Positions 39,147-61,024 are shown, counted from the stretch's first letter. The stretch: 64,000 nt of DNA from Promethearchaeota archaeon (GCA_048938105.1 JBHLMN010000001.1:428921-492920), one strand, 5' to 3'. Notes: generated from the letters alone by a model not told the origin. Numbers and translations are program-made.

Positions 39147-39210
39147 GCTTCAGAGAGTAATCTAGCTTCTGTTAACTCTTCAGGGTCACCCATCGGAGTT
39201 TCTGACATCA
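39147..39210 (-). repeat. rnpB 3'-end fragment, copy 1 (short, ~64 bp; att-like scar)
   Basis: Degenerate match to 60636-60700. Ends at TTTCTGACATCA. Confidence 0.85.
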
Positions 39211-41290: not shown

Positions 41291-41366
41291 ACAACCACTG
41301 GATTCAGTATATATTTTCTCTCACTTGAGTTTCCCCTTTCAATCATAAGTTAATTACTCAAACTAA

Positions 41367-41771: not shown

Positions 41772-41922
41772 GAATGTTAGGCCAATAAAACAACCTACAA
41801 CATGGAAAAGAGATGCTGGACGCAGTTTAATCTCCTATTTTTTGTACACCTATTACTCGAATTAACAGTCCTCATCTTTAAGATTTTCGATCCCACTTTT
41901 ACCGAATAGCTCTAGTGTTACT

Positions 41923-42708: not shown

Positions 42709-42791
42709 TACATTCTACTCATATGATTTAAATCGGAATTTTCGAGACATTAAAGAAGAAAGATAGCCAAACCTCTTACAAAGAAGTGAGA

Positions 42792-42864
42792 GGGCGTCGA
42801 TCCAGAGAGTAATTCAGCTTCTATTAGCTCGTCAGGGTCACTCCATCAGAAGTTCTGACATCAA
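42792..42864 (-). repeat. rnpB 3'-end fragment, copy 2 (short, ~73 bp; att-like scar)
   Basis: GGGCGTCGATCCAGAGAGTAAT...TTCTGACATCAA matches 60629-60701 with several substitutions. Confidence 0.88.
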
Positions 42865-42949
42865 AGTACGTGTCGTTCATTAAATTTACCCTGAAATCTT
42901 TTTAAATTTATAGGGAAATGGAAGTATCTGAATGTGAGGGATAAAGAAG

Positions 42950-45019
42950 TTGAAGAAATATCATTTGAATCTAGTATTTAGATCTCTTTTATTCTTTATT
43001 TTGATTAGGACTATGCTCTACAATTCATCTATAAATTCATTAGATTCTGATGAGACATTAAGTCCACTAAAGGCTACTTCTATAGAAGCTAAAACAAGTT
43101 ATTACGATATTTCTAATTATATATATGTTGAGAATGACTCTGAATTAGCCAAAGTAGCAAGTAGCGGCAGCGGCTTAAACGAAGACCCCTATATCATCGA
43201 GCGCAAAAATATAACCACAACCTTTCCTTTGGGAATCTATATCAGTGGTACATCAAAATATTTTGTAATTAGAAATTGTTTTGTTAGTACGGGTCTGATT
43301 TGGGGTCATATTGGGATTTATCTAGAATATGTAGCAGCAGGAACAGCTAGGATCATTAACAATACCTGCAAAAATAACAGTGATGGAATAAAAATCTATT
43401 ATTCAAACAATTGCACAATTAGCAACAATACTTGTCAAAACAATAGTCTAGGATTTTTCACCGCAGGAATATCAATCTATCATTCTAATAATTGTATAAT
43501 AAATAATAACACTTGTAAAGGAAATGTTGTTGGAATTAATATTGAGAATTCCAATTCAGCATTAGTTTTGAATAATTCGTGTAGTCAGAACATACAGGGA
43601 GGTGTTAATATCATTAATTGTGAGTTTATACAAATTATTAACAATACATTCTTTGATAACAGCATTAGATTCAATACTTTCACGAAAAAGAGCTACTTTT
43701 CATATGTAGTCCAAAATAATTTTTTTGACTCCCTCCCTATTGGCTATATTATCAATCAAAGCGATATATTAATTTCGAAAATTTATAGACAACTCATTCT
43801 AGTCAATTGTATAAATGTTACTATTCGTGATTATGATAATACAATTCTAGCCTTAAATTTTTACTATTGCACGAGTTGCCACATCATCAATAATAGTTTC
43901 GCTCATACTTGGTCTGGTGTGGAACTTTTAGGTTCGATCGCTATACGGATCCATAATAATACGTTCTTAGATTGTTACATAGGTCTATCCACTGTTTTCT
44001 CTAATTCCTCTTTCATTACCAACAACTCATTTTTTCAATGTATGGCTGGTATTTATTTAAGTCATTCTTCTTCTTCAATATTAACTAACAATTTATGTAA
44101 TCAAAATGAGGCATTTGGAATATATGTTGGGTACCAATCGCCAAATACTATTATTGACAGTAATATCTGTAATCACAATAAAGGAAATGGAATTCAGACT
44201 GAAGATGCAGGATCACCTATTCTGAAAAACAATTTATGTAATGAGAATAGTCGTTATGGTATAGATATTGAGGATAAAGCCAGTGTTATAAATAATACAT
44301 GCAATCAAAATGGATTGGAAGGTATTCAACTTTTTGATTTTGAATCATCTAGCGTTAGTAATAATACTTGTAACGAAAATAATGGGAGTGGTATTTTCAT
44401 ATGGTCTTCAGATAACGTTATTGCTTCTAACAACAATTGTACGAAAAATAAAATAAGTGGAATACAACTATTATCGTCAGGTTCCTCAATAATTAAGAAA
44501 AATTTCTGTACACACAATGATCGCGATGGACTTCTGCTTGAGCGTTCTGATGACTGCATTATCAGTTTTAATTCTTTTGAACACAACACTGAATATGGGG
44601 TTACACTTAGTGACGAATCCTCCAACAATATTATATATTCCAACCGTTTTATTGATAATGGGGTAACTAAAAATTTCAATTCTCAAGCTTATGACGATTC
44701 AATGAATAATTCTTGGTATGATTCATCAAGGAGTGTAGGTAATTGCTGGTCTGATTATTCTGGGTCTGGGTTTTATGTTATTGCTGGGACTGCAGATTCG
44801 GTAGATCAATATCCAAACTATTGCGATAACAAAACATCTATCAGTACATTTACTCAGGTGCCTTTATCTAACTCTTCTATCCAACCAACTTCTATAAGTC
44901 AAACTTCTGTAACAACCAGACTTATTACGACAACTTCGATAGCCTTAGTTCATGGTTTTGGGATTATCCTAATATTTGTGACAGCTGTTCTGGCAAGGAT
45001 GAAAAGAAGAAACAGATAG
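42950..45019 (+). CDS. NosD/right-handed parallel beta-helix surface protein with S/T linker and C-terminal TM anchor
   Basis: GSG..EDPYII, many NNTC..N..GI repeats, GNCWSDY, hydrophobic tail followed by KRRNR. Confidence 0.88.
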   Translation: MKKYHLNLVFRSLLFFILIRTMLYNSSINSLDSDETLSPLKATSIEAKTSYYDISNYIYVENDSELAKVASSGSGLNEDPYIIERKNITTTFPLGIYISGTSKYFVIRNCFVSTGLIWGHIGIYLEYVAAGTARIINNTCKNNSDGIKIYYSNNCTISNNTCQNNSLGFFTAGISIYHSNNCIINNNTCKGNVVGINIENSNSALVLNNSCSQNIQGGVNIINCEFIQIINNTFFDNSIRFNTFTKKSYFSYVVQNNFFDSLPIGYIINQSDILISKIYRQLILVNCINVTIRDYDNTILALNFYYCTSCHIINNSFAHTWSGVELLGSIAIRIHNNTFLDCYIGLSTVFSNSSFITNNSFFQCMAGIYLSHSSSSILTNNLCNQNEAFGIYVGYQSPNTIIDSNICNHNKGNGIQTEDAGSPILKNNLCNENSRYGIDIEDKASVINNTCNQNGLEGIQLFDFESSSVSNNTCNENNGSGIFIWSSDNVIASNNNCTKNKISGIQLLSSGSSIIKKNFCTHNDRDGLLLERSDDCIISFNSFEHNTEYGVTLSDESSNNIIYSNRFIDNGVTKNFNSQAYDDSMNNSWYDSSRSVGNCWSDYSGSGFYVIAGTADSVDQYPNYCDNKTSISTFTQVPLSNSSIQPTSISQTSVTTRLITTTSIALVHGFGIILIFVTAVLARMKRRNR

Positions 45020-45298
45020 TATTGAATGATATCTTCTTTGGACTCAAGGTCAGTTTTAAATGGAGCCATATCATTACAAGTCTCATTAATGTAAAAGACG
45101 TGAGAAGGGTTAGGTTTGATCTTGTTTCTATCACTTAGGCTTTTACGGTTGATTTTCAATAATTTTCCCTTAAGAGAAATTTACTAAGATTGGAAGTCAT
45201 TTTAATTTAATATTATTATGAATATTTTTAATTACAAAAAATATCAGGTTTTTTAAATGGACTCAGAAATAATCCTCATATAATCAATTCAATGAAAG

Positions 45299-46312
45299 GT
45301 GATCCATATATCATCTCAAGAGAAACAGCCTCATCCTGCATGGTATAAAGTAAGTGAAATTAATTATGGTCGTGAAACTATTATCTGGATAACAATCATG
45401 GGTCTAATCTTAAGTGTGATTGGAACTTTCATTAGTATATTGTTTTTATTCTTCTTAGGGATAATTAATCTCCCAAGGGAATTCCAAATCATTATTGATC
45501 CTGTTTCCCCTCTTATTGTTATGTTGATTATTGGATGCTTTCATGAAGGAATTCATGGTCTTGTTTTTAAATTCTATGGAAAAAATGTAAAATATGGATT
45601 CAAAATTATGTATAATGTTATTCCTGTTTTCTATGCTTATTCTAAAGGAATTTTCTTTAGGAACCAACTTATCATCGTCTGTTTAGCCCCTTGTTTTCTG
45701 ATCACAGCTGCCCTTTCAATTATTTTGATTATAACTATTTATCAAAACTTAGTTTGGATTTCATTATTTCTTATTGCAATAATTCTTGCTCATCTTGCGG
45801 GATGTGGTGGAGATTTCTATCTCACATATCAATTATTGAAATATCCTTCAACAGTAATTGTAGAAAATACAGGAGTTGATGATCCATTCATTATTTGGAA
45901 TGATTCAGAATTAAAATCACTGAACTATTCTATTATTCCCCAAACTTGGATTATTCCTAGATATCTGAATCCAGTACTAAAATATAGCAGAAATTTAGCA
46001 AGTGGTTTATGTCTATTCCTTCTATTGGTAATATTAGGAGTAACAATTCTAGGTATACTTCTTCCAGTGATAATGATACCACTGATGACAAAAGAACTTC
46101 AACTGTTGGGTTTTCATTATATAAGAACTTCAATTGGGATAGAAATTAGCTGGGTTCATCCCTGGGAATTACTAATGATTAGCTTCCTAGGAACTATTTC
46201 AATTTATGTTAGTTATAGGAAGATCTTCAGTTTAAAACGAAAGAAATCATTAGAAAGTGAAGTAGATGATTCTTCTGAAAATGAAAATGCAGGAATCCCA
46301 TTTTTTATTTAA
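45299..46312 (+). CDS. DUF3267-type membrane zinc metalloprotease
   Basis: HEGIH, LAP, AGCGGD motifs; multi-TM. Confidence 0.82.
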   Translation: MIHISSQEKQPHPAWYKVSEINYGRETIIWITIMGLILSVIGTFISILFLFFLGIINLPREFQIIIDPVSPLIVMLIIGCFHEGIHGLVFKFYGKNVKYGFKIMYNVIPVFYAYSKGIFFRNQLIIVCLAPCFLITAALSIILIITIYQNLVWISLFLIAIILAHLAGCGGDFYLTYQLLKYPSTVIVENTGVDDPFIIWNDSELKSLNYSIIPQTWIIPRYLNPVLKYSRNLASGLCLFLLLVILGVTILGILLPVIMIPLMTKELQLLGFHYIRTSIGIEISWVHPWELLMISFLGTISIYVSYRKIFSLKRKKSLESEVDDSSENENAGIPFFI

Positions 46313-46488
46313 AAAATCAATAGCTATTAACAAAAGGATTCAATGAGATGAAAAAGGAGAAAGACCGATGAGGAACAAGCGAGCATTTAAAGACAAAATT
46401 GTGACCCTCACGGATTTTTTCAGTGCCTAGCACTCCTTCTTCCTTTAGTTTTTATAATAGTACAGTAGTAATTGACAGGAAAGGTATA

Positions 46489-47931
46489 TTACTTATTATA
46501 TAGTAGTAATCTGGTTTCGAGGTCTGGATTTTTCATGTCTAGTTGAAGAAACGTTTTTAATATTTGAAACCCAGCTAAATGGTCGTTAGGAGGAGCTTTC
46601 CATAATTTCATTGAGTCACCTCCCATAAATCGCAAATAGAACGTTTGTTTAGATTTTTCAATATTGAGAAGAGCTTTTTTCGGGATTATGAGGGAAGTGA
46701 TTTCTTTTTGGAAAACTTTGTTTGAAATGTTTATGAATACTCCCCAAAATTCAATATATTTCCGACTAATAACATCTGTTAGGAAAAGATATCCAAACAA
46801 TAATGAGATTAATGAGATAATTATAGAGATTAGAAAAAATACAATAATGCCAATTTCTTGAGGAGACTTAGAAAAATCTCCATTAGGAAGCGTAGATCCA
46901 TTAGATATGATATATAGAGTTAATATGATGAGGAGAGCTAATACACAAAGGAAAAATATTAAGAATGTAGTAATAATTATTCTTCCCAATATATTTATAT
47001 TCCCTCTTTTCTTTGCACGAAGAATATAAACATCATGATGGGATTCTATATCAAATTTTGTTTTAAGGGGTTTGTATTGGTCAACTAAGTCATTCAAAGG
47101 AAGCCCCTTTACTTTTGTATAAGGATCTAGATCATCATTTTTTTCTATAATTTGGTCAATGACAGTTAAAATGTTATGACTTGGAAAGACAGTAGATGTG
47201 GATTTATGCGGACGATTACGAAATTTTTTCCACTGACTTAGCTCTACTGAACCTTTTGTTACAATCAATACAGGATAATGACTGAGTATGTGAATGAGCT
47301 TATAGTAAAACGGGGCTACATTGGCTAGTCCTGCCCATGTCCACATTTTTATTGGGTCATCGGATTCTGAGAATTCTAGTTGATTGTAAAACCTAACTGA
47401 GATAAAATAACTCCTTGTGCTTACTCGAATTTCAACACTTTCGACCTGTTCTAAATTGATCTGATCTGTTACTACTTGGGTGTAAAAATCTCGAATTGAA
47501 TAAAGAACCTTATTAACAGAATCATGAATAATGTGGTGTCTTGGAAGGTTTATAAAGATTATAACCCATCCAGTCAAAGATAATAGACCCTGAAAAACCA
47601 AGATAAATATGAATAATTCTAAATCAAATCGATTACAGATAAAATTGAATAAGATAAAGATCATGACCGTTAAAACCAATAAATACTGTTTCCAAGGGAC
47701 ATGACATGTCTGGTTTGGCCATTTTAACATTAAGTACCCAATGCTGATAAGTAAAAGCGCAAGTAACATAACGAAACCATTTATGGTTAACGTTATTAGT
47801 TCTGAATTGATTATAAATACAATAATAAAGAATAAGGAGTGAAGAAAGATACCAAAAAGGGAATTGACAACAGAATATAATCTAGATCCCATAGGTATTT
47901 TCAAATTATTCTCTAATGCGTAGTACTCCAC
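46489..47931 (-). CDS. Membrane hypothetical protein
   Basis: 480 aa, 4+2 TM segments, each group followed by a soluble beta-rich domain. Confidence 0.72.
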   Translation of the reverse strand: MEYYALENNLKIPMGSRLYSVVNSLFGIFLHSLFFIIVFIINSELITLTINGFVMLLALLLISIGYLMLKWPNQTCHVPWKQYLLVLTVMIFILFNFICNRFDLELFIFILVFQGLLSLTGWVIIFINLPRHHIIHDSVNKVLYSIRDFYTQVVTDQINLEQVESVEIRVSTRSYFISVRFYNQLEFSESDDPIKMWTWAGLANVAPFYYKLIHILSHYPVLIVTKGSVELSQWKKFRNRPHKSTSTVFPSHNILTVIDQIIEKNDDLDPYTKVKGLPLNDLVDQYKPLKTKFDIESHHDVYILRAKKRGNINILGRIIITTFLIFFLCVLALLIILTLYIISNGSTLPNGDFSKSPQEIGIIVFFLISIIISLISLLFGYLFLTDVISRKYIEFWGVFINISNKVFQKEITSLIIPKKALLNIEKSKQTFYLRFMGGDSMKLWKAPPNDHLAGFQILKTFLQLDMKNPDLETRLLLYNK

Positions 47932-48077
47932 AAAATTGCCCTCTAGATAACATAATGCATTCTGATTTTCAAATACTCTGGGATTTAATTGTATATTATC
48001 CTTTAAAATGTTATAGATCCAAAACTTTTAGAGGAGGAGTAAATTAAAATTTCAGTAAGTTAGATGGGTATTGAAAT

Positions 48078-48878
48078 ATGAAAGAAGTGCAACCTATTAT
48101 TGACATAAGAGGTTTAATAAAGAATTATGGTACATTCCCTGTATTCGATAGACTATCATTGACAGTCAACAAAGGTTCTTGTACTGGCCTAGTTGGGCCT
48201 AATGGGTCGGGGAAGACCACTTTGTACAAATGCTTACTTGGTTTCACCGATGTAACATATGGCCAAATTTCTTTTTTTGGAGACGAAACATGCAAAGACG
48301 GTCTTGTAAGACACCAGAGTTTACACACCTGTAGAAAACGTATTGGTTATGTTCCAGAAGAGAATGTCTTTTACGAACATTTATCTCCAAAAGAATACCT
48401 CCAGATGGTTGCCTCTGTCATTCGAATACCAAAGGACGTTCAAACCATTCGCGTAAACGCATTGCTAAGTGCATTTAAATTGGAACGTTGGGCGGAGCAG
48501 ATGATAACCACCTTATCTGAAGGAAATAGACAACGTTTATCTATCGCTGCTGCCTTTATCCAAGGACCTGAACTTCTACTTCTGGATGAACCTCTTAACG
48601 GACTTGATCCTGGTGGAAGACATTACTGCCTTAATTTACTCTCACAATTCACGGATAAAGGTGTGCCTGAACTCGCTATTACTTCTCCAGGAACTATTCT
48701 TATCAGCAGTCATTTACTTGGAGATATAGAGCGTATTTGTACGGACGTTATAATATTGAACCATGAATGTCAAGTAGTAGCTCGTGGTTCACTCTCTGAG
48801 GTACGTAATAGACTAACCGAGGATGCAAACCTTGAGGATGTTTACCTCGCTGTAGTTGAAGGTTGGGAGGAAGAATAA
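48078..48878 (+). CDS. ABC transporter ATP-binding protein (exporter type)
   Basis: GPNGSGKT, LSEG, LLLDEP, SSH. Confidence 0.93.
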   Translation: MKEVQPIIDIRGLIKNYGTFPVFDRLSLTVNKGSCTGLVGPNGSGKTTLYKCLLGFTDVTYGQISFFGDETCKDGLVRHQSLHTCRKRIGYVPEENVFYEHLSPKEYLQMVASVIRIPKDVQTIRVNALLSAFKLERWAEQMITTLSEGNRQRLSIAAAFIQGPELLLLDEPLNGLDPGGRHYCLNLLSQFTDKGVPELAITSPGTILISSHLLGDIERICTDVIILNHECQVVARGSLSEVRNRLTEDANLEDVYLAVVEGWEEE

Positions 48879-50342
48879 TTGGAAATAATGAGGGATTTAT
48901 TTGAGAAAGTTTATTATTTAAGTTGTTTACGAATAAAAATTGGTTTTAAAAGACATTCTCCTATTATCTTTGCAATTGGTATATTGTTTCTTTTGTTTTA
49001 TGCTTTGATTTTTGGAATTCTTTTAGTTATTCTTTTCTTAGGTATTTTCTCACAACAAAACTTCCAACCACCAATTCCTTATAGAGATTTATTATCATTC
49101 GGATTTTTAGCCTTTTTTGCCACAATCTTGTCTTATTTGATTACTGCTGGAGCGACTGGACTTCGAAACCCTTTTATTAGTGGGCGGCAGGATGCTCACT
49201 TTTTTCAGCGCATCCCAGTTGAATCATTTGTAATGTATGTCTCAACACAAATAATTGAGCCTCTCAAAATAGCCTTACTATTTGGACCGATGATTGTGTT
49301 TCTGTTCGGTCCTTTAATGCTGGTACTTCATTTACCTTGGTGGAGAATAGTAGGTGTACTAATTGTATGTTTCCTTACCTACATTCTTTGTGAAAACATG
49401 GCACAATTAGCTTTCTTTACTCTTAGGAGGTTCAGGCGTAAAGGAAGTTGGTCCTTAATATGGATAGAATATAATTCTCTAATTGGCGGTATATGTATTC
49501 TAGGAATTCCTGTAATAGCACTTCTATTGTTACAACAAAATATTATCACCAATTTCAAAACTCTTACCAATTATACTCTTTTCCCCTTGGTTAATACAGC
49601 AGTATCAGCAACAGGTTTTTTCTTCCGGTCTGGTGTTCCTTTAGTAAGCTGGTTTGCTCTGTTAATTCTATTTTTGGAATCAGTCATACTTTCATGTGTC
49701 GCTAGCATTGTTGCAGTGAAATACAAACCAATGGAGGACATAACAGAGATCATACCTGTATTATCATTTCAAGCAACACAAATAGAAGATCTTATTGGTG
49801 GGAAAACTATTGAACCCCCTGAGCTAATTAACGAAAATATCAAAGGTACAACCATTATCAGTGGTAAATCACCTTGGCGAGCTTATTTATTAAAAGATTG
49901 GCTTGCTATTAAACGTATTCGCATGTTACGGAACCAATTTTATCAAGCTCCGATTATTGTTATTGGAATTATCATTATTATTTTATTCGTTATACCGAAA
50001 GAGAATACATTATCCCATATAATACTAATCTTAGCTATTTATCGAATGGCCGAATTTTGTATGCAAATTATGCAACTAGAAATTAAGGATCCAATGCAGC
50101 GTTTCCCAGTTAATCCATGGGATATGAGAAAAAGTAAGTTTCTCCTTGGCCTCTTAGGAACAGGTTTTTATAGTATTCCTTTGTTAGTAGTTAAAGGACC
50201 AATTAGTTTATTGATCATAATCCTTATATCAGGACTGAGTATAATTCTTGGGAAGACAAAATTAATAAACTCCAAGCTTACCAGATACTTCATATTATTA
50301 ATGATTGCATTTTTGACAACATTATTACTCTTGTTATTTTGA
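48879..50342 (+). CDS. Putative ABC exporter permease
   Basis: About 11 TM segments. Abuts the ATPase gene. Confidence 0.78.
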   Translation: MEIMRDLFEKVYYLSCLRIKIGFKRHSPIIFAIGILFLLFYALIFGILLVILFLGIFSQQNFQPPIPYRDLLSFGFLAFFATILSYLITAGATGLRNPFISGRQDAHFFQRIPVESFVMYVSTQIIEPLKIALLFGPMIVFLFGPLMLVLHLPWWRIVGVLIVCFLTYILCENMAQLAFFTLRRFRRKGSWSLIWIEYNSLIGGICILGIPVIALLLLQQNIITNFKTLTNYTLFPLVNTAVSATGFFFRSGVPLVSWFALLILFLESVILSCVASIVAVKYKPMEDITEIIPVLSFQATQIEDLIGGKTIEPPELINENIKGTTIISGKSPWRAYLLKDWLAIKRIRMLRNQFYQAPIIVIGIIIIILFVIPKENTLSHIILILAIYRMAEFCMQIMQLEIKDPMQRFPVNPWDMRKSKFLLGLLGTGFYSIPLLVVKGPISLLIIILISGLSIILGKTKLINSKLTRYFILLMIAFLTTLLLLLF

Positions 50343-50658
50343 GTTTCTTCCTCCAATAATTCCTATTATGAAGAAGTTATGTGGAATGTGAAGTCTTTCT
50401 TAGAATTCCACCTTATTAGTGGGAAAAAGTTTTATTTCTCTGTAGGTGGTGTTTTTTTCGCAAGAATTAACTAACCCACACGCTTTGGGCACCATGCTTT
50501 TAAAGGAAGGATGTGTCAAAAAGCTAGATATCCTTGCTTTTACAGGGGGTAAGTAACGATTGGACGGTTGATTGAAAAGAATTACAAATAATAATTGCAT
50601 TGGAATGATAGACATTCCGAAATGTTTTAGAAAACAGCCACTTATTTTATTAAATCGT

Positions 50659-52086
50659 TTATGCGGTAGATGGTTTTAAATTATGGTAAATTATACCAAA
50701 ACAAAAACAAAGAAAGTAAATACATAGTCCAATCAGAAATAGATCATTGTTATTCATTATTAAGAGAGGAATATGAATACAAATTACAAGAAGAAATGAT
50801 AATAGCCATTTTTCTGTGATTAAAGCTGTTTTGGATATATCAAAATGGCGAACGAATGTTTTTGATTCTTTAAACCACAAAAAGAGACTGATAATAATGG
50901 TGATCACAGGTACAATAATAAGATAGCCTGGATATATTGTTACTTTAGTAAAAATCCAAAATACAAGTAAACCGCTAATTAAAATAAAAGCACAACTATA
51001 GAGTAATGATATTCTGAATTTATCCAAAAGTAAGAAATCTTTCTTGAGTAAACTACTAATTTCAGATAGGAAACGACTTTGAGATGATTTAACATAGGTG
51101 AATTTAAACAAAATTTGTGCTAAAGAACTAAAGATCAGAAGAGAGATCAATGGGGCTTCTATATTGGATGATAGGTATTGTACTAACGGTTGTCTTTCAT
51201 ATAATCGAGCTAAAGGGTCTATTCTTCCTAAAATTAGAAAAAAAAGAAAATTAACCACTAACCAATTGAAGATTAATGTTGATAATGCCAGGAGTACCAT
51301 GTCGTGAGGCCAGGTCTTGGAAAGAAAAGCTAAGATAAGATAGATGATATTAAAAGGGGGAATAAACCAAAGATTAAGAACCAAATCTTCGAGAAACAAA
51401 GTATTAATCTTACTTGCCTCCATTATAACAACTAGTCCTCCGAAAAATAGAAGGAAAATCAAAGCTTTTACAACAGTAGTTATTCCAGAAATATTTTCTT
51501 CTCGCCATCTGGGCTTGAAATTTTCAAGAATTTCCTCAACAAATGTATATACAAAAGCACCAGCTAATATGAAGAGATGAGTTCCTAAAAATAACGTGAA
51601 AACTGCTGATAGCATATAGAGAAGTTGAATATCAAATTTTGAACCATAAGAAAAGATGAATAAAGATAGTACAAAGATTAATCCCATTACTCTCAGAGTA
51701 GTCCGAAACCACCCAATGAGTGTCCAAGTTAAGGGTCTACCTGAAATCTGTGATACTACGTTTAAATCAGCCACCTTGAAATTAAAAGGATTCAGAGGAA
51801 ATAATTCAGGTCCATCAGAAGCAGGAATTGTAAAACTTAGACATGATAGAATAAAGATTACCAATAAAAAAAACACTAAAATCGTTATAACAACCCCTCG
51901 CGGATTTCCTCCCAAGAATGGAATATACCATCGCATGAATACTATTATGAGGATTTCTAAAAATATCACAAAATAGAACATCAGGCTTGATTTTGGCACA
52001 GCATCCAATAATCTTCCCCATTTTTTATATTCAAGCCAAATAAACCGTCGTAAGATATTCCAATTGCTAGATGCTTTATGTTTCAC
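50659..52086 (-). CDS. Putative ABC exporter permease
   Basis: About 11 TM segments. Overlaps the stop codon of its ATPase gene. Confidence 0.78.
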   Translation of the reverse strand: MKHKASSNWNILRRFIWLEYKKWGRLLDAVPKSSLMFYFVIFLEILIIVFMRWYIPFLGGNPRGVVITILVFFLLVIFILSCLSFTIPASDGPELFPLNPFNFKVADLNVVSQISGRPLTWTLIGWFRTTLRVMGLIFVLSLFIFSYGSKFDIQLLYMLSAVFTLFLGTHLFILAGAFVYTFVEEILENFKPRWREENISGITTVVKALIFLLFFGGLVVIMEASKINTLFLEDLVLNLWFIPPFNIIYLILAFLSKTWPHDMVLLALSTLIFNWLVVNFLFFLILGRIDPLARLYERQPLVQYLSSNIEAPLISLLIFSSLAQILFKFTYVKSSQSRFLSEISSLLKKDFLLLDKFRISLLYSCAFILISGLLVFWIFTKVTIYPGYLIIVPVITIIISLFLWFKESKTFVRHFDISKTALITEKWLLSFLLVICIHIPLLIMNNNDLFLIGLCIYFLCFCFGIIYHNLKPSTA

Positions 52087-52900
52087 GATTCCATACCTCT
52101 AGGATGAATGATTCGAATGTTTGATCCTTAATCATTCTTTTTTTTGCATCAGAAATTGATCCTTTCCAAGCAATCTTACCTGAATGGAGAATAGTCATAT
52201 GGGTACATAAATCTTCTAGATAAGATGGACTATGAGAGGAAATGAGAATTGAACCAGGAGAATTGATGCCTAATTCTGGGATACCATCTGTTATGAATTC
52301 ATTAAGTAACTTCTTTACTTTATTTCTTATGTTAACATCTAAAGTAGCAAAAGGTTCGTCTAAGATGAGTACTTCAGGTTGATGGATTAAAGCGGTACAA
52401 ATCATTAACTTTTGGTGATTTCCCCTTGAAAGATTTTTGACCAAGGTTTCTTGCCAAGTTTCTAACTCAAATATATCGAATAAAAAACTAGTATAAGTTG
52501 AAAGTGCTTCCTCTGATAAACCATAAAGGTCGCCAAGAAAGTTAGTGTATTCATCAATGGTTAAGAAAGGATAGATTTCAAGCTGTTCAGGAGTGTACCC
52601 AATTCTCGGTCGTATATTTCGAAGGACAGATAAAATTTTTCCATGTATAACCACATCATACCCGAAAATACGTATATTACCCTTCTGAATCTTTACTAGT
52701 CCCATAAGGCATTGTAGTAAGGTTGTTTTTCCAGCGCCATTCGGTCCAACAATGCCTAAACACTCATGATCTTTAAGACTCAAACTAATATCGTCAAGCA
52801 CCTTAATTTTACCGTAACTTTTCACTAAATGATCAATTTTTATAGGGAAACGGGATTGTAATAGTGCTTCTGAGTTCGTTTGGTCTTTGATAAACGCCAT
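52076..52900 (-). CDS. ABC transporter ATP-binding protein (exporter type)
   Basis: GPNGAGKT, LSRG, LILDEP, SSH. Confidence 0.93.
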   Translation of the reverse strand: MAFIKDQTNSEALLQSRFPIKIDHLVKSYGKIKVLDDISLSLKDHECLGIVGPNGAGKTTLLQCLMGLVKIQKGNIRIFGYDVVIHGKILSVLRNIRPRIGYTPEQLEIYPFLTIDEYTNFLGDLYGLSEEALSTYTSFLFDIFELETWQETLVKNLSRGNHQKLMICTALIHQPEVLILDEPFATLDVNIRNKVKKLLNEFITDGIPELGINSPGSILISSHSPSYLEDLCTHMTILHSGKIAWKGSISDAKKRMIKDQTFESFILEVWNRET

Positions 52901-53437
52901 TCGAATTCTCCAATATAATTTTGAATATTTTAATTAAAAACTAACTATTTAGTACACGGATATAAAATATTGAGAATCCAATAGTAATGAAAGACCCAGA
53001 GAAAAAGATTTTGTGTGTACTCCTCAGTAGACTCTTGTCAAGTTTAACTGATTTTTCTGATAACTCATCTTGTTTGTACTCATCAAAAAATCTGGGGATA
53101 AAGTTCTTAAGATCAAGAAAATGCTAGATAGATCCAACCAGCATTATATCATAACTAGATCCAGCAATAATGAGACCTAAGCTAAAAAAATGTACAAATA
53201 TCGTCATCTATATCACCGTGAAAATTCCCACTAAGCTTAATTTCAAACAAATATTGTTAAATCATTTTGACTTAATTTTTATCATTAACCAACTATAAAT
53301 GCTGTTTAGGTAGCAATTGAATCTAAAATATTACGCTGTGAAGTTCAATTTGTATTCTATTAATTTTCACCACTTTTGGAAATTCTTCTTTCTTCCAATA
53401 CTAACCTAATAATCACTTTAACATAAAATAAAAGTGA

Positions 53438-53616
53438 GGACGTCGCTCCAGAGAGTAATCCAGCTTCTGTTGGCTCGTCAGGGTCACCCCATCCGAGTTT
53501 CTGACATCAACCTAAGCGCTGCACTCCATGGCCCCCAAAGAGACCATTACTTCAGCTTGCATTCACTGAGGATGCTCGTTTCACCGATACCCTGCTCGTC
53601 CTCAGGAGATTAACTC
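53438..53616 (-). repeat. rnpB 3'-half fragment, copy 3 (179 bp; att-like scar)
   Basis: Matches 60629-60807 with 4 substitutions by my count. Ends at GGAGATTAACTC. Confidence 0.95.
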
Positions 53617-53843
53617 ATTCAGAAATTGATAAGTATACCTGATTTTCGTTCCTTCCAGATAATAAATCTCATGGGGGAAGATTTTTTTCAAAAAATCGTT
53701 CAGATAACTGAAAAGTAGCAACGGCGGCGTGGAGGCCAAATGGTTCCCTTCCAGATAAGCCGTCGACTAGAGGCGCCGACGCCCCGTTCCTCTCGTACTG
53801 AGAACGTCTTCCTCTCATAGATTCAACATGTCCCAGACTTAAT

Positions 53844-54035
53844 TCATAGTTTGTAACCGACAGTTGCATTGACGCGGAGTTGTTGCTCCTCGTAAATGGT
53901 TTCCGTACCAACCCAACCACCTGAAGATGCAATCAACATCATCTTGCCAGTACTAGATTCTTTTGGGTTAATGGGTAACCTAACAATAACTTCATTTTTT
54001 TCTTCATCAATTTCAATTTTAACCAGTTTCATCAC
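53844..54035 (-). CDS. Small hypothetical protein (SxxGKxxxIASxGG motif)
   Basis: 63 aa with a GAGGTG Shine-Dalgarno at the start and protein-like composition. Confidence 0.75.
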   Translation of the reverse strand: MMKLVKIEIDEEKNEVIVRLPINPKESSTGKMMLIASSGGWVGTETIYEEQQLRVNATVGYKL

Positions 54036-54104
54036 CTCTTAAGACAATTCTAGTTTCTTCCCTTAATTTGTAGGACACTTTGTGAATTTTAGTTAAATTA
54101 AAGT

Positions 54105-54821
54105 TTATTGGATAGTTTTAAGTTCATTGATGAGATATAATAAGGAATGCCAAACCAAGTTTGAATCCCCTGCTGAAGCCAATTTTGGGTTCTCATGGGC
54201 GTATAAGTTACGTAAATTACGAATAATTTCCTGAACATTCTTAGTCATTTCTTTCTTCTGTTTTGGTTGTTTTTGAGTTGATTGAAACCTATTAAATAAT
54301 TTTAGAATGCCCCATTTCTCTTCAAATCTAATTGAATTTTTATTCATTTTCTCTTTCAATATATATTCAGTAATCTTACCGCATAAAATTATTGAAGCAT
54401 CAAAAAAGCCCAAGAGATGGAGTTTCCTCGCGTTCACTAATGATTCTTTTAAATAAGGATCTAACTGTCTCTTTTCTAAATCTTGAAGTTCTCTCAAATC
54501 TGATATATCCTTCAGTTGTCTAATTGCTCTACAAATAAGATAATCTCCACGATAAACATTCTTTTGCCACTTAGGAATAAACATTTTCTGTTTCACATTA
54601 AGTTTTGAGAAATTGGGAATGTTTCCCATCGTCCTAAGTAATCTAAAGGATTTCTTCTGTTCATTAATCTTATTGAGAGATTCTATTGTATTGTTGTCAA
54701 TAATCATGGCCCAAGTAAAAATCTTGGTTAAAATTTCATTATTCTTATTTAACCAATTTTCATATTCACTTCTAATATCAGAAAGATAAGATGTATTATT
54801 CATGAAATCTTCACTAGCCAA
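54105..54821 (-). CDS. HEPN (DUF4145/Abi-like) domain protein, putative RNase toxin or defence protein
   Basis: ASIILCGKITE followed by IRNLRNLYAH (Rx4H HEPN motif). Confidence 0.75.
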   Translation of the reverse strand: MASEDFMNNTSYLSDIRSEYENWLNKNNEILTKIFTWAMIIDNNTIESLNKINEQKKSFRLLRTMGNIPNFSKLNVKQKMFIPKWQKNVYRGDYLICRAIRQLKDISDLRELQDLEKRQLDPYLKESLVNARKLHLLGFFDASIILCGKITEYILKEKMNKNSIRFEEKWGILKLFNRFQSTQKQPKQKKEMTKNVQEIIRNLRNLYAHENPKLASAGDSNLVWHSLLYLINELKTIQ

Positions 54822-54870
54822 ATCAGTTCTTCAGAGGATTTCAGCATGTTTCAATTCATACAATACAAAG

Positions 54871-55014
54871 TTATTTAGGGTATTTAGTTGCACCTTTTGC
54901 GTCAGACCGTTTCTTTCTCCATTTTCCAGACATTGTTCTTGATCTAGGTGCATATTTTCCATTTTTTGTCTTAACATGTGGTCCTGCTTTTTTACCTGCT
55001 CTACGATCAGGCAT
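54871..55014 (-). CDS. 47-aa highly basic small protein (not in the ORF track)
   Basis: MPDRRAGKKAGPHVKTKNGKYAPRSRTMSGKWRKKRSDAKGATKYPK, preceded by the SD GAGGTGA. Confidence 0.65.
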   Translation of the reverse strand: MPDRRAGKKAGPHVKTKNGKYAPRSRTMSGKWRKKRSDAKGATKYPK

Positions 55015-55032
55015 TTGTCATCACCTCTTTGA

Positions 55033-55710
55033 TTAGTTCGCTATTGAAACACTACTACATTTTCTTCTCCAGATTGTTAGATAATAATTGTGTTCAAAGG
55101 TATTATTACATATATTACACGTAAAATCTAGGAATTTTGACCAAAATCGGTCTAGTTTGTCTAATATATAGCTATGAACACTTTCTTCACGACACACTGG
55201 GCAAATAATTTTTAGATAGATTTTATGATTTGTTTCATTTACTTTTTCACATTTTTCTACAAAATATTGAATTCCCAATCTCGTTTGATGCCACTTTTGC
55301 ATCCTTGGAAAATGATCAAAAGTACTATCCATAGGATAGTGGTATTGAATGCTTGATTTTTGATTTATAACTGAAATATGATTATTGAAATCTGTTAGAA
55401 AATTCTCTACATCGTCAAATCGACATTTATTTAGAATATCAATGATTCCTCGGTTTTCAAGCCTTTTTAAAATTCTTTTACCAAATTTTGAGATGATACA
55501 TGGTCTTATATGAAGATGCTTGGGTGTTCTATTTTTAACAAGACCTTTCTTAATTAACCAATCACATATGGCACCAGAGTCGATGAAAGAAGGCAATCCA
55601 CTAATTTTAAGCTTTTCTCCTATGAAGCAGAGCGTGATCAATGCATGTTCATTTTCTAGAAGATTTTTTATACCTGCCACGTTGCTATCATCTCTGCCAT
55701 ATTTGTCCAC
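55033..55710 (-). CDS. Hypothetical protein with wHTH-like N-terminus and C-terminal Zn ribbon
   Basis: WLIKKGLV....ISKFGKRIL wing; CPVC...CNIC. Confidence 0.7.
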   Translation of the reverse strand: MDKYGRDDSNVAGIKNLLENEHALITLCFIGEKLKISGLPSFIDSGAICDWLIKKGLVKNRTPKHLHIRPCIISKFGKRILKRLENRGIIDILNKCRFDDVENFLTDFNNHISVINQKSSIQYHYPMDSTFDHFPRMQKWHQTRLGIQYFVEKCEKVNETNHKIYLKIICPVCREESVHSYILDKLDRFWSKFLDFTCNICNNTFEHNYYLTIWRRKCSSVSIAN

Positions 55711-56043
55711 TCGATTATCAAGGTTTCCTAGAAGGAAACAAAGATTCAGTGTCTAATAACTTTTGATTATCATCCTTGAATGTTTGCCTCACTAGTTTTG
55801 GTTCATCAATCTCCGCAGAATTTTTTCAATCCTCTTCTCCAGACTCCATAATTATAATATAACCTTTTTTTAACTTCAAAATTGAATGGTTATTTTGTAC
55901 ACTGCATATTAGGGAAACTTTAAATAGATTACGTATAAATGAATAAAATGAATTTTTTTGCGTACTAATGAAATATGACGCTACTATATCAATATACTAG
56001 AGCTGTAGTACCTTGATATGAAACTCCTTCTGGTGGATACTAG

Positions 56044-56652
56044 ATGAAACGAACTCCTTTAGCTGTTATTATTGATTTGATGGTTGGATTAAATACTCTT
56101 TTATTAGAGGAAGATTATTCTATTAACACTGTCTCAGAAATCACAAACCTTCATTGGGAATCTACTAATCGTTATTTGGAAATCATTAGAAAGATTCAAG
56201 ATTACTCACCATTTTTTACATTCACCCAAGATAGAAAAATAAGGATCTTAGCACGAAATCCGAATTTAAACATCGAAAACGATGATTTAATATTAGTTTA
56301 TAGTTTACAAAATAAAGCATTTGATGAACAATCAGCGATCGTACTACCAAATTCTTTAAATGCAGAGATAGAATTCTTATTGGATAAAGAGTTTGGTGTA
56401 TTACAAAAGAACAGAAAATTCTTTCTAACTCAAAGAGGAAAGGAAATGGCGCTTGATATTTTTCTAGAAATCCAACAAAAAATTGAGTCAGCTCAAACAG
56501 CCCATATAGGCATGAATGATTTTGATTTCGATAAATTACGTAAAATAAACTTAAAACAGAGAGAAATGGAATCCATTGCTGATAATATAATTGCAATCAT
56601 TTTCGAGAAACTTGAGAAAAGTAAATGTGACAAAGAACTCGAGGTTCACTAA
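56044..56652 (+). CDS. Winged-helix DNA-binding protein
   Basis: SINTVSEITNLHWESTNRYLEII HTH; second wing FFLTQRG. Divergent from the HEPN cluster. Confidence 0.72.
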   Translation: MKRTPLAVIIDLMVGLNTLLLEEDYSINTVSEITNLHWESTNRYLEIIRKIQDYSPFFTFTQDRKIRILARNPNLNIENDDLILVYSLQNKAFDEQSAIVLPNSLNAEIEFLLDKEFGVLQKNRKFFLTQRGKEMALDIFLEIQQKIESAQTAHIGMNDFDFDKLRKINLKQREMESIADNIIAIIFEKLEKSKCDKELEVH

Positions 56653-57138
56653 GCAGGTTGATTTTTCTGTCTTTTTCAATTCTAAATATTTCTAAGTTGT
56701 AAATAGGATAAGTGCGGGGTGGGGATTGTGATTGGATTGATTGATTTATCACCTGTCAGAATATCAGAACAAATCGAGTTAAGTACAAAAAATGCATCTT
56801 CAAATACAACCCAGCTTTATAATGTTTCAACAAACGCTTACAGTTTAAGTTACCAAGTGAAAGTTTATGGATATCAATAAGATCTTTTTGGGGGAAATAT
56901 CGTTGCTAATCTATAACTTATCTGCTTTTCATCTTATAAATGTTTCATTTTAAGGTTAAAATGAGTTTCTAATGAAATACATAGGTAACAAATAACCAAA
57001 TTGAGCATTGAATGAAAAATAATGTTAGATTTGATTTTATTTTTTGTTTTCGATTTTTTATCTATTGTTTTTCGAATTATTTTTCCATTCTCACACCTCC
57101 ATAATCCTATACCTGTTGTTGATGTAAAATAATTGGAA

Positions 57139-57317
57139 GGGCGTCGCTCCAGAGAGTAATCCAGCTTCTGTTGGCTCGTCAGGGTCACCCCATCGGAGTT
57201 TCTGACATCAACCTAAGCGCTGCACTCCATGGCCCCCAAAGAGACCATTACTTCAGCTTGCATTCTCCGAGGATACTCGTTTCACCAATGCCCTGTTCGT
57301 CCTCAGGAGATTAACTC
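57139..57317 (-). repeat. rnpB 3'-half fragment, copy 4 (179 bp; att-like scar)
   Basis: Matches 60629-60807 with ~10 substitutions. Ends at the same GGAGATTAACTC breakpoint as copy 3. Confidence 0.95.
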
Positions 57318-57412
57318 AAGGACTCCAGAAATTAAAAAGATGATTTCACTTATAAGTTCCCTTGATATACATCATATATTAAAAAAACAAGAGATTTGAA
57401 CTTATGTCCAAG

Positions 57413-57919
57413 TCAGAGCGATTGTGGTGAATCCTTAAAAACAGAATACGCTACTCCTGTAGGATAAGGGGGAGCTGTGTCCAGAAATAGCTTAATCATA
57501 ATTAATGATGCTAATAGATTGACTAAAAAAGCTGTGAATCTAATATTTTTACTCAATCCATACTTTTCTTGGCCTGGTATCGTAAAGATCCCATTTCCAG
57601 CATGTAGTGAAAGAGTAAAAAGTAATGCTGGAGTACTATTAAATATAAAGTCGATTGGATACGTAGCTCGTTCTTTAATAGTAACCAGGGTCATACCAAT
57701 TAATGATGAGACCATAAAGATCGCTATTTGTATAAGAAGATACAATGGTTTAGCAATAAGTCTTTTATTCTTACCTTGTTCGAAGGTTGATACCGAAACG
57801 TTAAGTTTTTCTCCAATCTCATCAATTTTCTTCTTATTCAAAAAATTTACCCCAATAAACGCAGTGCGATTATCAAATAAAATCTTATACAAAACATGAT
57901 CTAGGGGACTGTTATACAT
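57413..57919 (-). CDS. Membrane hypothetical protein
   Basis: 168 aa with ~3 TM segments. Confidence 0.55.
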   Translation of the reverse strand: MYNSPLDHVLYKILFDNRTAFIGVNFLNKKKIDEIGEKLNVSVSTFEQGKNKRLIAKPLYLLIQIAIFMVSSLIGMTLVTIKERATYPIDFIFNSTPALLFTLSLHAGNGIFTIPGQEKYGLSKNIRFTAFLVNLLASLIMIKLFLDTAPPYPTGVAYSVFKDSPQSL

Positions 57920-58066
57920 ATTTTAGTATAACTCCCTTACCATTGTTCAAGAAAAAGATCTATAAATATTTTTATGATTCTGGGTTCATATTAAAAAATC
58001 GTTTATGTTACTCTTATCCTCCAAATAAGATGTTAAGTTTTAGTAGGTCAGGTATATACTACTCTT

Positions 58067-59377
58067 TCATCGAAGAACGGGTATATCAATTACAGATCCT
58101 CGTACTCTTTCTTTTACTCCTCGAAGTTCTTTTAGTATTTCTTCTTTTTCAGCTTTAGTTGTAGATAAAGTTAACGCAGTTCGATAGAAGTATGAGGTTT
58201 TAGGGTCATCTGTCAACGCTCCTAAACGACCTAAATTCCAATAGATAATATAGTTATCAGAAATTAATCTTGAAGATACAATAAACAAGTCTTTAGCTTC
58301 TTCATACCGTTTTAAATAGAATTTTCGAAGACCTTGATTATAACAAGTAGCAGCCTTGTTCATGATAAAGAAAAAGTCAAAAAAATGGATAGATTCAGAA
58401 CTCAAGGAACGAGTATAGGAAAAAGTCTTTTTTAAATCAGAATCAGTGGTGAATACCTGATAAAGTTTAGATTCTAGATCAACTATAAAAGATTGATAAT
58501 CTTTTTCCAATTCTCCAGGCGTTTTTTTTCGTTTAACCCATAATGTGAATATTTTCTGGTGAAAATCAATGTTTTGTAAAAAATTTATGGTTTTACTCAT
58601 TTTAATTTGATATTTATCTAAAATATGGGTATAACGTGTGATTATTTGCAGCAATATTCCTGCTAATAATGGATTACAGATAGACAATCTGGTAAGGGCA
58701 TGAATGCAATTGTTAAGCATGTTTGTTTTCTCTTTTTTGTCTAAATAGGACTCAATATTTTCAATATGATTTTTTTCTAACAAATGAGTGTTTTTCACAT
58801 GTCCAGAAAATATAATTGGCGTAATATTTGTTCTAAAAGCGTGAATGAGAGTTATGTCTCGAATTTCATTGGGAAAAGGTTTTTTGCAGGTAATTCGTAA
58901 TCCTTTCTCGTATTGATGACTCTGAGGAGTTTCTTTCCTAATCTTAACGAATCCTGCCTTCAACAAAAAGTTAATAAGAATTTCACTTGTGAAACCCGTT
59001 TTATGCCGCATTCCAGGGTTTTTTACACCATAAATCCACTGTAGAGTTGATATTTGTGATGATAAGTCTTTTAAACGGGAGATCTTTCTACTGGAAGACT
59101 TTAAATCAGGTACTTCGATAATCAAGCTCCCACCTTCTTTTAATATTCTGAACCACTCATTCAATATGTATTTGACTTCCACCCAGTCAAAATGTTCAAG
59201 TAAGTGAAAAGCCTCTATCATCCCAACTATATTTGACTTGATCGGTAAAAAAGCAGCATGAGCACCAATGTCTGCAGCACTCAAATTAAATAGATCTACA
59301 TTCAAAAAACCAACGCGGTACTTCAATCCACATCCTAAATTAAGAGAAATCTCTGAAGTTTTTTCATTATATATCAT
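58067..59377 (-). CDS. Class I SAM methyltransferase (type 11) with C-terminal TPR
   Basis: LNLGCG, NVD, HLLEH, RILKEGG..VPD; TPR-like YNQG...YEEA...YWNLG. Confidence 0.82.
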   Translation of the reverse strand: MIYNEKTSEISLNLGCGLKYRVGFLNVDLFNLSAADIGAHAAFLPIKSNIVGMIEAFHLLEHFDWVEVKYILNEWFRILKEGGSLIIEVPDLKSSSRKISRLKDLSSQISTLQWIYGVKNPGMRHKTGFTSEILINFLLKAGFVKIRKETPQSHQYEKGLRITCKKPFPNEIRDITLIHAFRTNITPIIFSGHVKNTHLLEKNHIENIESYLDKKEKTNMLNNCIHALTRLSICNPLLAGILLQIITRYTHILDKYQIKMSKTINFLQNIDFHQKIFTLWVKRKKTPGELEKDYQSFIVDLESKLYQVFTTDSDLKKTFSYTRSLSSESIHFFDFFFIMNKAATCYNQGLRKFYLKRYEEAKDLFIVSSRLISDNYIIYWNLGRLGALTDDPKTSYFYRTALTLSTTKAEKEEILKELRGVKERVRGSVIDIPVLR

Positions 59378-59385
59378 AATATAAT

Positions 59386-60417
59386 CTAATCCTCATTGAC
59401 CTGATTTTGGATAATATCTGTTTCTATACGATGAAAACAGTACGGATCATTATGGAATTGTTCCATCAGTGCATAGGAAACCGAGTTACAACCTCCTTGG
59501 CAAGTCAAGTTGTGTGGGCAACGAATACAGTATGATCCTATTTGGTTTTTCGAAAATTGTCTGTTATAAGAAAACGTATCTTTACTGTACCAAATCGATG
59601 ATAATGATTGCTTTCGTATATTCCCTTCAATGAAGCGATCATTTCCCATGGCTAAACATCCAACGATTCCACCATTACTTGTAATCCCAATTGAACTGAT
59701 TCCAGCAGTACAGCCATTCCAAAGAAAATTTGGCATCACACTAGAATGATACCCCATAGAATGGGCTCCGACAACTGGCATGTTTTGGAAGTGATGTTTA
59801 GCTCTTAGTTCAGCAATGAATAAGCCTACAGCATAAAATTCTTCATAAGAAAGCATTTTATCTTTTGTGAATTGACCAAAAGGTGCTGCCAATTGAATTT
59901 GCCAGTTAACCCCTTTATTATAAATAAGAGTCTTTAGTTTGGGAAGCTCATTGAAATTAATTTTGCTAACTGTTGTTATAATAGTTACATGGATTTGTTT
60001 TCTTCTTAAAAGATTGATTGCTTTAATTGCATTAGTGAAAGTTCCTTTTACACCACGAATGAGGTCGTGTGTTGTTCGTAAACCATCAAGACTAATGCCA
60101 ACCACGGTTGGTTTTAATTCAGCTAATTCATTGATGTATTTATTAAGAATAAACCCATTAGAAACAATACTCAATTCTATGCCAAGATCTTTAATACAGC
60201 TAGCAATTTCATACCAATCTTTTCGTAAGAAGACTTCTCCTCCCATTAAAGCAACATTATCACACTTTAAATGGGCTAATTGCTCACATAACGAAAACGA
60301 TTCCTCAGTGGTTAATTCATCACTTCGGGCTTGACCTGCGGATGATCCACAATGAGAACAACGTAAATTACATTTAAGAGTGGTTTCCCATATTGCGCAC
60401 TCCAATGAATAGTTCAT
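59386..60417 (-). CDS. Radical SAM protein with SPASM domain
   Basis: CNLRCSHC, GGE, SLDG..HD..RG, CTAG...GC...C..C.....C.GGC...C. Confidence 0.92.
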   Translation of the reverse strand: MNYSLECAIWETTLKCNLRCSHCGSSAGQARSDELTTEESFSLCEQLAHLKCDNVALMGGEVFLRKDWYEIASCIKDLGIELSIVSNGFILNKYINELAELKPTVVGISLDGLRTTHDLIRGVKGTFTNAIKAINLLRRKQIHVTIITTVSKINFNELPKLKTLIYNKGVNWQIQLAAPFGQFTKDKMLSYEEFYAVGLFIAELRAKHHFQNMPVVGAHSMGYHSSVMPNFLWNGCTAGISSIGITSNGGIVGCLAMGNDRFIEGNIRKQSLSSIWYSKDTFSYNRQFSKNQIGSYCIRCPHNLTCQGGCNSVSYALMEQFHNDPYCFHRIETDIIQNQVNED

Positions 60418-60629
60418 TGCATCGACCTTGCAGAATAAAGTAAAATACTAAATATTAGTTACTTAAGGTGACTGACCCTCATTAACACAACATATATTCA
60501 CTTGAGACTTTAAAAAATTCTGATTTCTATTTTTGTTCTGAAATTCTCTCTTTTTCTCGGATTTTTCACGTATTGACAGTATTAACAACAGTTTATGAAA
60601 ATAAAAGTTGAGCCATAAAGAAAGCAGTG

Positions 60630-61002
60630 GGCGTCGCTCCAGAGAGTAATCCAGCTTCTGTTGGCTCATCAGGGTCACCCCATCCGAGTTTCTGACATCA
60701 ACCTAAGCGCTGCACTCCATGGCCCCCTAAGAGACCATTACTTCAGCTTGCATTCACTGAGGATGCTCGTTTCACCGATACCCTGCTCGTCCTCTGGAGA
60801 TTAACTCGTCCACTGTTACCAGCGTCTTCACTCCATCATAGCCATGAGAACAGGGGCGTTGCGTTTCTGTAGCAGAGCCCAACCTCTCGGTTGACAGCGA
60901 ATAGTTACCCACAGGTACTATCCGACTGTTCAGCATACAAGAATGGCTGGAATTTCCTCAGGTTTTCGGAGAAACCCGGAGTCAGACTTCTGCTTCGACG
61001 CC
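60630..61002 (-). ncRNA. rnpB: RNase P RNA (archaeal type A-like, ~373 nt)
   Basis: Minus strand: P1 GGCGTCG/CGACGCC; P2 TCTGAC/GTCAGA; GAGGAAATTCCAGC pairs with ACAGAAGCTGGATTA (P4 with bulged U); P5 CATTC/GAATG followed by CAAG; conserved ACAGAAAC and TGAAAC; P12 base CCCTGTTC/GAGCAGGG. GC-rich block in AT-rich DNA. Confidence 0.93.
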
Positions 61003-61024
61003 AACATTATTAGGTTCCCTCTAG

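Follow-up and report, generated by a model that had tools for sequence, protein, structure and literature searches.

Tandem cassettes bounded by 3′ fragments of the RNase P RNA gene behind rnpB in a Promethearchaeota archaeon

A 64,000-nucleotide (nt) stretch of the genome of a Promethearchaeota archaeon (GCA_048938105.1, JBHLMN010000001.1:428921-492920; hereafter the window, in which positions are counted from the first letter) contains an intact gene for the archaeal RNase P RNA (rnpB) and four partial copies of the same gene, all of which lie downstream of the RNA 3′ end and have the same orientation as rnpB. The four copies divide about 21.5 kilobases (kb) of the about 25.8 kb of inserted DNA into four cassettes (A-D, in order from rnpB), and segment E is the remainder. 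With a probability of roughly 0.55, we attribute this array to serial Campbell-type insertion at rnpB, and the edges of the copies to homology blocks borne by the cassettes and not to the cut sites of two recombinases. According to this explanation, the 3′ end of rnpB would be a landing site where cassettes lacking a recombinase pile up one by one. Each cassette would be tied to its own rnpB 3′ block, which would begin at a cassette-specific position and extend past the RNA 3′ end into a T-rich terminator tail, and one reciprocal (Campbell-type) recombination within the block would insert the cassette, keep the ribozyme gene whole, and leave a 3′ fragment behind. The point at which identity to the gene is lost would then be the edge of the travelling homology block, inherited and open to trimming by deletion, and not the site of the crossover.

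The rnpB gene was identified by a full-length match (model positions 1-288) to the Rfam model RF00373 at 60997..60635 on the minus strand, with a score of 137 bits. The P1 pairing GGCGUCG/CGACGCC lengthens this match to approximately 61003..60629 (minus strand), and both a TATA-like box upstream of the gene and a T-rich tail after the RNA 3′ end can be read from the sequence. The gene and its four copies are as follows.

60629..61003, minus strand: rnpB, intact RNase P RNA gene, the 3′ 179 nt of which (60629-60807) are the repeated block
57139..57317, minus strand: fAB, long copy (RNA positions 191-372), distal to cassette A, 94.4% identical to 60629-60807 (BLAST)
53438..53616, minus strand: fBC, long copy (RNA positions 191-372), distal to cassette B, 97.8% identical to 60629-60807 (BLAST)
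42792..42864, minus strand: fCD, short copy (RNA positions 297/298-372), distal to cassette C (BLAST)
39147..39210, minus strand: fDE, short copy (RNA positions 298 to about 362), distal to cassette D, 89.2% identical to 60636-60700 (BLAST)

All copies possess the shared 3′ core followed by a tail of about 20 nt, in which a T-run precedes the motif (A/G)CA located about 15-20 nt past the RNA end; the tails after the copies are T-rich and differ cassette by cassette. In the case of fCD, BLAST aligned 42780-42864 with 60617-60701 (84.7% identity over 85 nt), the homology of the tail reaching to 42780. Six private variants are clustered at positions 212-242 of fAB, fBC is near the consensus of the rnpB genes from related genomes, and a more decayed ortholog of fDE is present in genome G009 (L004 11372-11446). 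No additional copies of the rnpB 3′ core were found elsewhere in the genome. The stretch just past fBC (window 53340-53437) is homologous to L009 127-220, a fragment from G012, over the 55-90 nt directly behind the RNA 3′ end, and the cargo that follows is different; the post-RNA stretches of two fragments of G003 with boundaries at 211 and 315 (L007 5757-5815 and 7073-7130) are likewise homologous and followed by different cargo.

The points at which the copies part from the gene fall into two coincident pairs. Three exact occurrences of GGAGATTAACTC were found in the window, ending at 53616, 57317, and 60807 (0.02 expected by chance), and five of TTCTGACATCA, ending at 39210, 42863, 53509, 57210, and 60700 (0.11 expected by chance). 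In the printed alignments, both long copies diverge at the identical base (RNA position 191), after GGAGATTAACTC, and the short copies diverge at most one base apart (position 297/298), after TTCTGACATCA; the extra matching T in the copy of cassette C compared with that of cassette D may be due to chance. In the Rfam alignment, position 191 belongs to the P12 insertion, whereas position 298 lies shortly before the 3′ strand of P2. An original prediction made for this DNA had placed the ends of the long copies at exactly the same base (53616 and 57317, gene position 60807, in the P12 region) and those of the short copies within one base of each other (39210 and 42863-42864, gene position about 60700, at the 3′ strand of P2), and the word search, BLAST, and the alignments bear out both statements. 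Its view that such end points do not reflect random decay is also upheld, and the copies can be regarded as scars that repeated insertion has left at rnpB.

The original prediction also read the two classes of end point as the crossovers of two recombinase specificities. What stands of this proposal is that the window contains two boundaries, each found with two cassettes of unrelated cargo; the assignment of the boundaries to two recombinases is not supported, given the inherited and deletion-shifted boundaries in related genomes, the variants linked to cassette A, and the lack of any integrase or resolvase gene in the arrays, all described below. Fragments of the rnpB 3′ end were found in 8 or 9 of 20 congeneric genomes and in metagenome contigs of the Joint Genome Institute (JGI). 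Junctions were grouped into boundary classes by the relatedness of their cassette-side flanks, and a G015 fragment at a scaffold gap and a G014 copy at a contig end were excluded from the counts. This grouping yielded 14 unrelated junction classes, with boundaries at positions 153, 167, 191 (A), 191 (B), 211, 226, 233, 239, 246, 279, 297 (C), 298 (D), 315, and 323. The occurrence of two pairs at most one base apart among these 14 classes fits a uniform spread (P=0.46), and the boundaries in the genus are therefore close to continuous. The distribution of breakpoints in other genomes had been set beforehand as the test of the two-recombinase proposal, and a near-continuous distribution essentially refutes it.

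Boundaries travel with the cassette by inheritance and can shift by deletion. Cassette A has its boundary at 191-194, with homologous flanks, in both the window and G011, a cassette encoding a PadR family protein and a protein of 505 amino acids (aa) has its boundary at 239 in both G014 and G012, and a transmembrane-protein cassette retains a boundary at 278-281 across four contigs. In L077, the same transmembrane-protein cassette has lost about 90 nt spanning the junction, a deletion that has moved the boundary from about 279 to about 325.

Two further copies in related genomes are unusual in their context. An orphan copy in G002 (L011 6509-6739, contig C84; boundary at about 167) is located away from the rnpB gene of that genome, and the rnpB locus that its 3′ core and downstream flank match belongs to G005 and not to G002. 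A DDE transposase gene is situated beside this orphan, as is a gene for a protein with an NYN/PRORP-like (protein-only RNase P-like) domain (L011 1007-1486). The other copy (L003 7802-8024) is the one at the end of a G014 contig (C84); it has a boundary at about 192, is followed by the proximal genes of cassette A, and is preceded by 30 nt that partly resemble the distal arm of A itself, where the contig ends. This arrangement could represent a tandem A-A, a circle junction, or an assembly artefact.

The position of the exchange was approached through variants linked to cassette A. The A-distal fragments of the window and G011 share T221, T233, and G240, and T221 and G240 are found in no other copy. 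In the part of rnpB proximal to A, T330 and the tail are common to the window and G011. If these variants travel with A, this pattern suggests that the crossover of A took place between 243 and 329, not at 191. An allele-swap comparison, in which the identities of the 5′ and 3′ parts with relatives were contrasted, was uninformative.

Neither a tyrosine or serine recombinase nor a remnant of one was detected with Pfam and PHROGs among the open reading frames (ORFs) of the cassettes in the window, including ORFs without a family. Six-frame searches with PF00589, PF16795, and PF00239 found no match in the window or on the array contigs of 21 genomes of the genus, and the proposed linking of boundary classes to integrase clades consequently found no integrases on these contigs to link. 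In the genome as a whole, PF00589 matches are limited to contigs C14, C56, and C45, and the nearest resolvase gene is 180 kb from the window (six-frame search). As regards an integrase of the SSV type, PF16795 had no match above E=0.39 in the genome, and none of the ORFs that overlap the rnpB copies matched a family. The cassette ORFs in G011, G014, G003, G002, and G015 are all cargo (PIN, PadR, NadA, ABC transporters, and AbiEii, as annotated with Pfam and PHROGs), the sole exception being the insertion sequence-type DDE transposase beside the G002 orphan copy. Extra PF00589 genes in the genus do not track the array-bearing genomes, and no viral contig carrying the rnpB 3′ core was found in IMG/VR.

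Several other origins of the array were considered. No terminal inverted repeats pair the ends of any cassette, and no transposon ends were found. Retro-copying of the RNA, which would produce 5′-truncated copies with a common 3′ end, was rejected in view of the confinement of the copies to one co-oriented array behind the gene, with none elsewhere, and of the cassette-specific tails. Plain segmental duplication was rejected because no sequence is common to the cassettes.

Among the explanations that compete with serial Campbell-type insertion, one retains the crossover at the point of divergence. It assumes two families of integrative elements with their own tyrosine integrases, cutting at about 191 (A and B) and about 298 (C and D), and later deletion of the integrase genes; the identity block would start at the crossover, as in the sublocation classes of tRNA and transfer-messenger RNA (tmRNA) islands. 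This would account for the classical tRNA/tmRNA-type architecture of a regenerated gene with a displaced fragment and for base-exact boundaries of unrelated cargo that can be ordered in time (D followed by C at 298, and B followed by A at 191). Both coincident pairs (A/B at 191 and C/D at 297/298) are moreover formed by neighbouring cassettes (adjacency test, P about 0.012), the confinement of the arrays to one genus suggests a specific agent, and survivorship could have removed the elements that still encode an integrase. However, at least 12 specificities over 170 nt would be required in the genus, 0 of about 20 cassettes in 9 genomes contain an integrase, a resolvase, or a detectable remnant, and many cassettes are just 0.6-3.7 kb long with intact cargo genes. 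At least one boundary has been moved by deletion, the variants linked to A place its crossover at least 50 nt inside the block, and viral contigs with the rnpB 3′ core are lacking, so that this explanation appears improbable. The neighbour pairing would also fit a common origin of A and B, and perhaps of C and D, in a composite element that had just one rnpB block, through tandem duplication by unequal recombination between rnpB repeats or through a second integration, followed by differing gene loss. Evidence for such shared junction ancestry comes from two JGI metagenome contigs of another Asgard lineage (L089 10001-15738 and L090 524-6391), on which homologs of the B module of a 238-aa protein and a small ORF (here 230 aa and 63 aa) adjoin four A-like genes (radical SAM, 428 aa, 150 aa, and 149 aa) without an rnpB copy between them, an adjacency that makes shared ancestry plausible; A and B plausibly descend from one composite unit, as judged from these gene orders. 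In addition, the 14-nt sequence CTTWTYAATTTCTG is found 3-8 nt from both 191 junctions. This sequence is T-rich and may be just the terminator of the last gene, however, and a similar motif, AGAAATTGA, also occurs in cassette D. The cassette-side flanks show no significant likeness (A versus B, score 18 against a shuffle mean of 16.7; C versus D, 23 against 18.9), which indicates that the matching end points are not simple duplicates. The junction of A at 191 is already present in G011, where A adjoins D and not B, the B-like module on L089 and L090 is inverted relative to the A-like genes, and no comparable evidence was found for C and D. Homologs of the B module (L087-L091) occur in defence-like contexts as well as beside A-like genes; on L087 and L088, they are located among restriction-modification and AAA_15/DUF4435 genes. 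As an explanation of the array, common descent of neighbouring junctions is thus also improbable, but for the matched pairs of the window themselves, either shared junction ancestry or successive arrivals with the same block type is most likely.

An integron-like capture has also to be considered, in which one recombinase supplied in trans would act at a single site in the shared 3′ core (about 298-372 plus the tail). The fragments would then be attC-like sites of variable length, those starting at 297/298 being minimal, longer ones carrying extra homology, and shorter ones being decayed. The 3′ core (in almost all copies) and the T-run/(A/G)CA tail are common to the copies, the arrays consist of small cassettes without a recombinase of their own and are restricted to one genus, the crossover interval proposed for A (243-329) includes 298, and one boundary past 298 was found to be deletion-derived. 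On the other hand, no candidate recombinase gene, including one of the IntI type, adjoins rnpB, the extra PF00589 genes show no correspondence with the arrays, and no conserved inverted-repeat core was identified, although no structural test was made. Conservation of the 3′ core and the terminator is explained equally well by the need to rebuild a working gene, and a single-site capture of this kind seems the least probable of these explanations. A broader formulation, namely an rnpB-anchored capture platform at which small recombinase-less cassettes with attC-like, variable rnpB 3′ fragments are inserted and shuffled by either a trans recombinase acting at the shared 3′ core or self-perpetuating homologous recombination, is rather unlikely as well, albeit worth retaining. 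If it were true, integron-type arrays would have an archaeal counterpart whose platform is an essential ribozyme gene.

Under serial Campbell-type insertion, the nature of the enzyme has to be inferred. Host homologous recombination of excised circles, which would become self-perpetuating after the first duplication, is slightly favoured, with a little less than an even chance. A site-specific recombinase supplied in trans is a credible but less likely source, and integrases that the elements themselves once encoded and have since lost are somewhat more doubtful still. A number of points weigh against serial Campbell-type insertion itself. Neither an excised circle nor an empty site nor a polymorphic array was observed, mobility of the cassettes is therefore deduced solely from genome comparison, and most of the compared genomes are metagenome-assembled, so that the order of repeats could be misassembled. 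The neighbour pairing is unlikely to have arisen by chance at the P value given above and would be expected from two successive elements with one type of attachment (att) site. The case from linked variants consists of three shared sites in a fragment diverged by 24% (roughly P=0.02), and the shared variants could stem from vertical inheritance of the junction combined with gene conversion. Elements that keep an integrase can leave, and arrays may therefore be enriched for integrase-less remnants. Finally, homologous recombination does not obviously explain why rnpB was chosen over the tRNA genes that were checked or how new cargo came to be joined exactly after the RNA 3′ end.

The arrays are specific to one genus of Hodarchaeales. 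In 40 genomes from other genera of the class, none has an rnpB fragment within 16 kb downstream of the gene; this survey was conducted by BLAST of the fetched downstream regions because the Rfam model misses fragments. An exact-protein look-up returned no near-identical strains on record. In the genome under study, no comparable fragment array was found at the 35 tRNA genes detected by ARAGORN, a set from which many intron-bearing tRNAs are missing. One intron-containing tRNA gene in the window (9948-10052; Rfam, 47 bits) was missed by ARAGORN in its default mode, which indicates that ARAGORN counts of tRNA genes are underestimates in this genome.

The array resembles several known systems in part. 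In the Islander model of tRNA and tmRNA islands, as outlined in PMC4383910, sequence brought by the element regenerates the target gene, and the displaced 3′ fragment forms the direct repeat at the far end of the island. The rnpB arrays share with these islands an intact target accompanied by a co-oriented, displaced 3′ fragment and the formation of tandem arrays at a single-copy essential RNA gene. Unlike them, they contain no integrase gene, their repeats are 64-220 nt long instead of a short identity block, their boundaries are cassette-specific over 170 nt, and the cassettes often comprise just one to three genes. The ssrA islands of Dehalococcoides are arranged in tandem behind the tmRNA gene, each bounded by a repeat of the 3′ end of the gene, and some of them, which have no integration module, are regarded as fixed or as mobilised through accretion (PMC3146451). 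This situation is similar to that of the rnpB arrays in that several tandem insertions are found downstream of one essential RNA gene. However, the Dehalococcoides repeat is always the same 20 base pairs, with the insertion point at 333/334, and 16 islands possess a DsiB serine recombinase module near attL (PMC3146451), whereas the rnpB arrays exhibit many repeat lengths and no recombinase.

Accretion of cis-mobilisable elements, a concept cited in PMC3146451, concerns integrase-less elements flanked by att sites. The rnpB arrays correspond to it in having recombinase-less cassettes that accumulate in tandem between copies of an attachment sequence but differ in that the genome yielded no helper element encoding a corresponding integrase, and the 3′ core occurs nowhere else in it. 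As in integrons, small cassettes, each ending in a repeat of variable length that resembles a recombination site, are lined up behind a fixed platform; unlike in integrons, no IntI-like gene is present beside the platform, and it is the platform gene that is copied in the repeats.

If this interpretation is correct, rnpB joins tRNA, tmRNA, and ffs genes as a small-RNA landing site, and no report of rnpB as a landing site in archaea was found in the literature searched. It accounts for the gain of about 26 kb of accessory genes at a single locus among the archaea most closely related to eukaryotes. Comparative data are needed before the edge of an att-like repeat can be taken for a crossover or for the specificity of a recombinase. 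In these arrays, each edge is passed on together with its cassette and worn down by deletion. If no integrase encoded by the elements took part in building the arrays, Asgard archaea would have a means of acquiring genes that island finders based on integrases overlook.

The four cassettes, segment E, and the gene that borders the inserted DNA are as follows.

57318..60628: cassette A, 3.3 kb, encoding radical SAM/SPASM, 436-aa methyltransferase-like, and 168-aa proteins (Pfam, PHROGs); no recombinase
53617..57138: cassette B, 3.5 kb, encoding 238-aa DUF4145-like, 87-aa, 225-aa, and winged-helix proteins (Pfam, PHROGs); no recombinase
42865..53437: cassette C, 10.6 kb, encoding two ABC ATPases, a DUF3267 zincin-like protein, and a NosD beta-helix protein (Pfam); no recombinase
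39211..42791: cassette D, 3.6 kb, encoding a GNAT-thioredoxin protein, a 134-aa protein, and a CLC chloride channel (Pfam)
34841..39146: segment E, comprising the three genes that separate the last rnpB copy from the Nip7-like gene; also found in G009
34295..34840, plus strand: Nip7-like PUA gene (UPF0113), bordering the inserted DNA

A homolog of cassette A with the same junction is present in G011 (L001 5484-9168), and genes of A were also found in G014 (L003). In G011, A is directly followed by D, without B between them; either A was inserted independently in the lineages of the window and G011, or B and C were subject to internal gain or loss. Cassette C additionally encodes three proteins of 475-487 aa without a family match in Pfam. 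Cassette D, which is common to G009, G003, and G011 on the basis of synteny, is the oldest dated cassette, and in the closed chromosome of G009 (CP070695.1), this CLC-channel cassette and segment E are the only ones present between rnpB and the Nip7-like gene. No rnpB fragment was detected at the far end of segment E, which is either an older insertion whose scar has gone or DNA that arrived by another route. The distance from the end of the Nip7-like gene to the 3′ end of rnpB is 36 nt in G010 versus 25.8 kb in the window, and the Nip7-like gene therefore marks the uninterrupted arrangement.

Elsewhere in the genome, a genome-wide self-BLAST for similar arrays returned mostly paralog noise. 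A 12.5-kb segment on contig C56 (G000:C56:188017-202088; L021 4017-18140) lies between 77-nt direct repeats that are 96% identical and is accompanied by a third, partial repeat copy; a PF00589 integrase gene is situated immediately beyond the repeat on the right. The segment has the appearance of a classical integrated element, and no Rfam RNA gene was found at its ends.

On its 5′ side, rnpB is neighboured by genes for a beta-propeller-like protein (404 aa) and a NosD-like protein. The position and orientation of rnpB relative to the conserved block of RsmB-like and Nip7-like genes (window 29941-34840) vary by clade within the genus (L013 and L015-L018 compared with the window). Three states were observed: rnpB and Nip7 converge in one, rnpB is placed in tandem between Nip7 and ABCE1/RLI in another, and in the third it is found beyond the far end of the block. 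This variation points to rearrangements at the locus.

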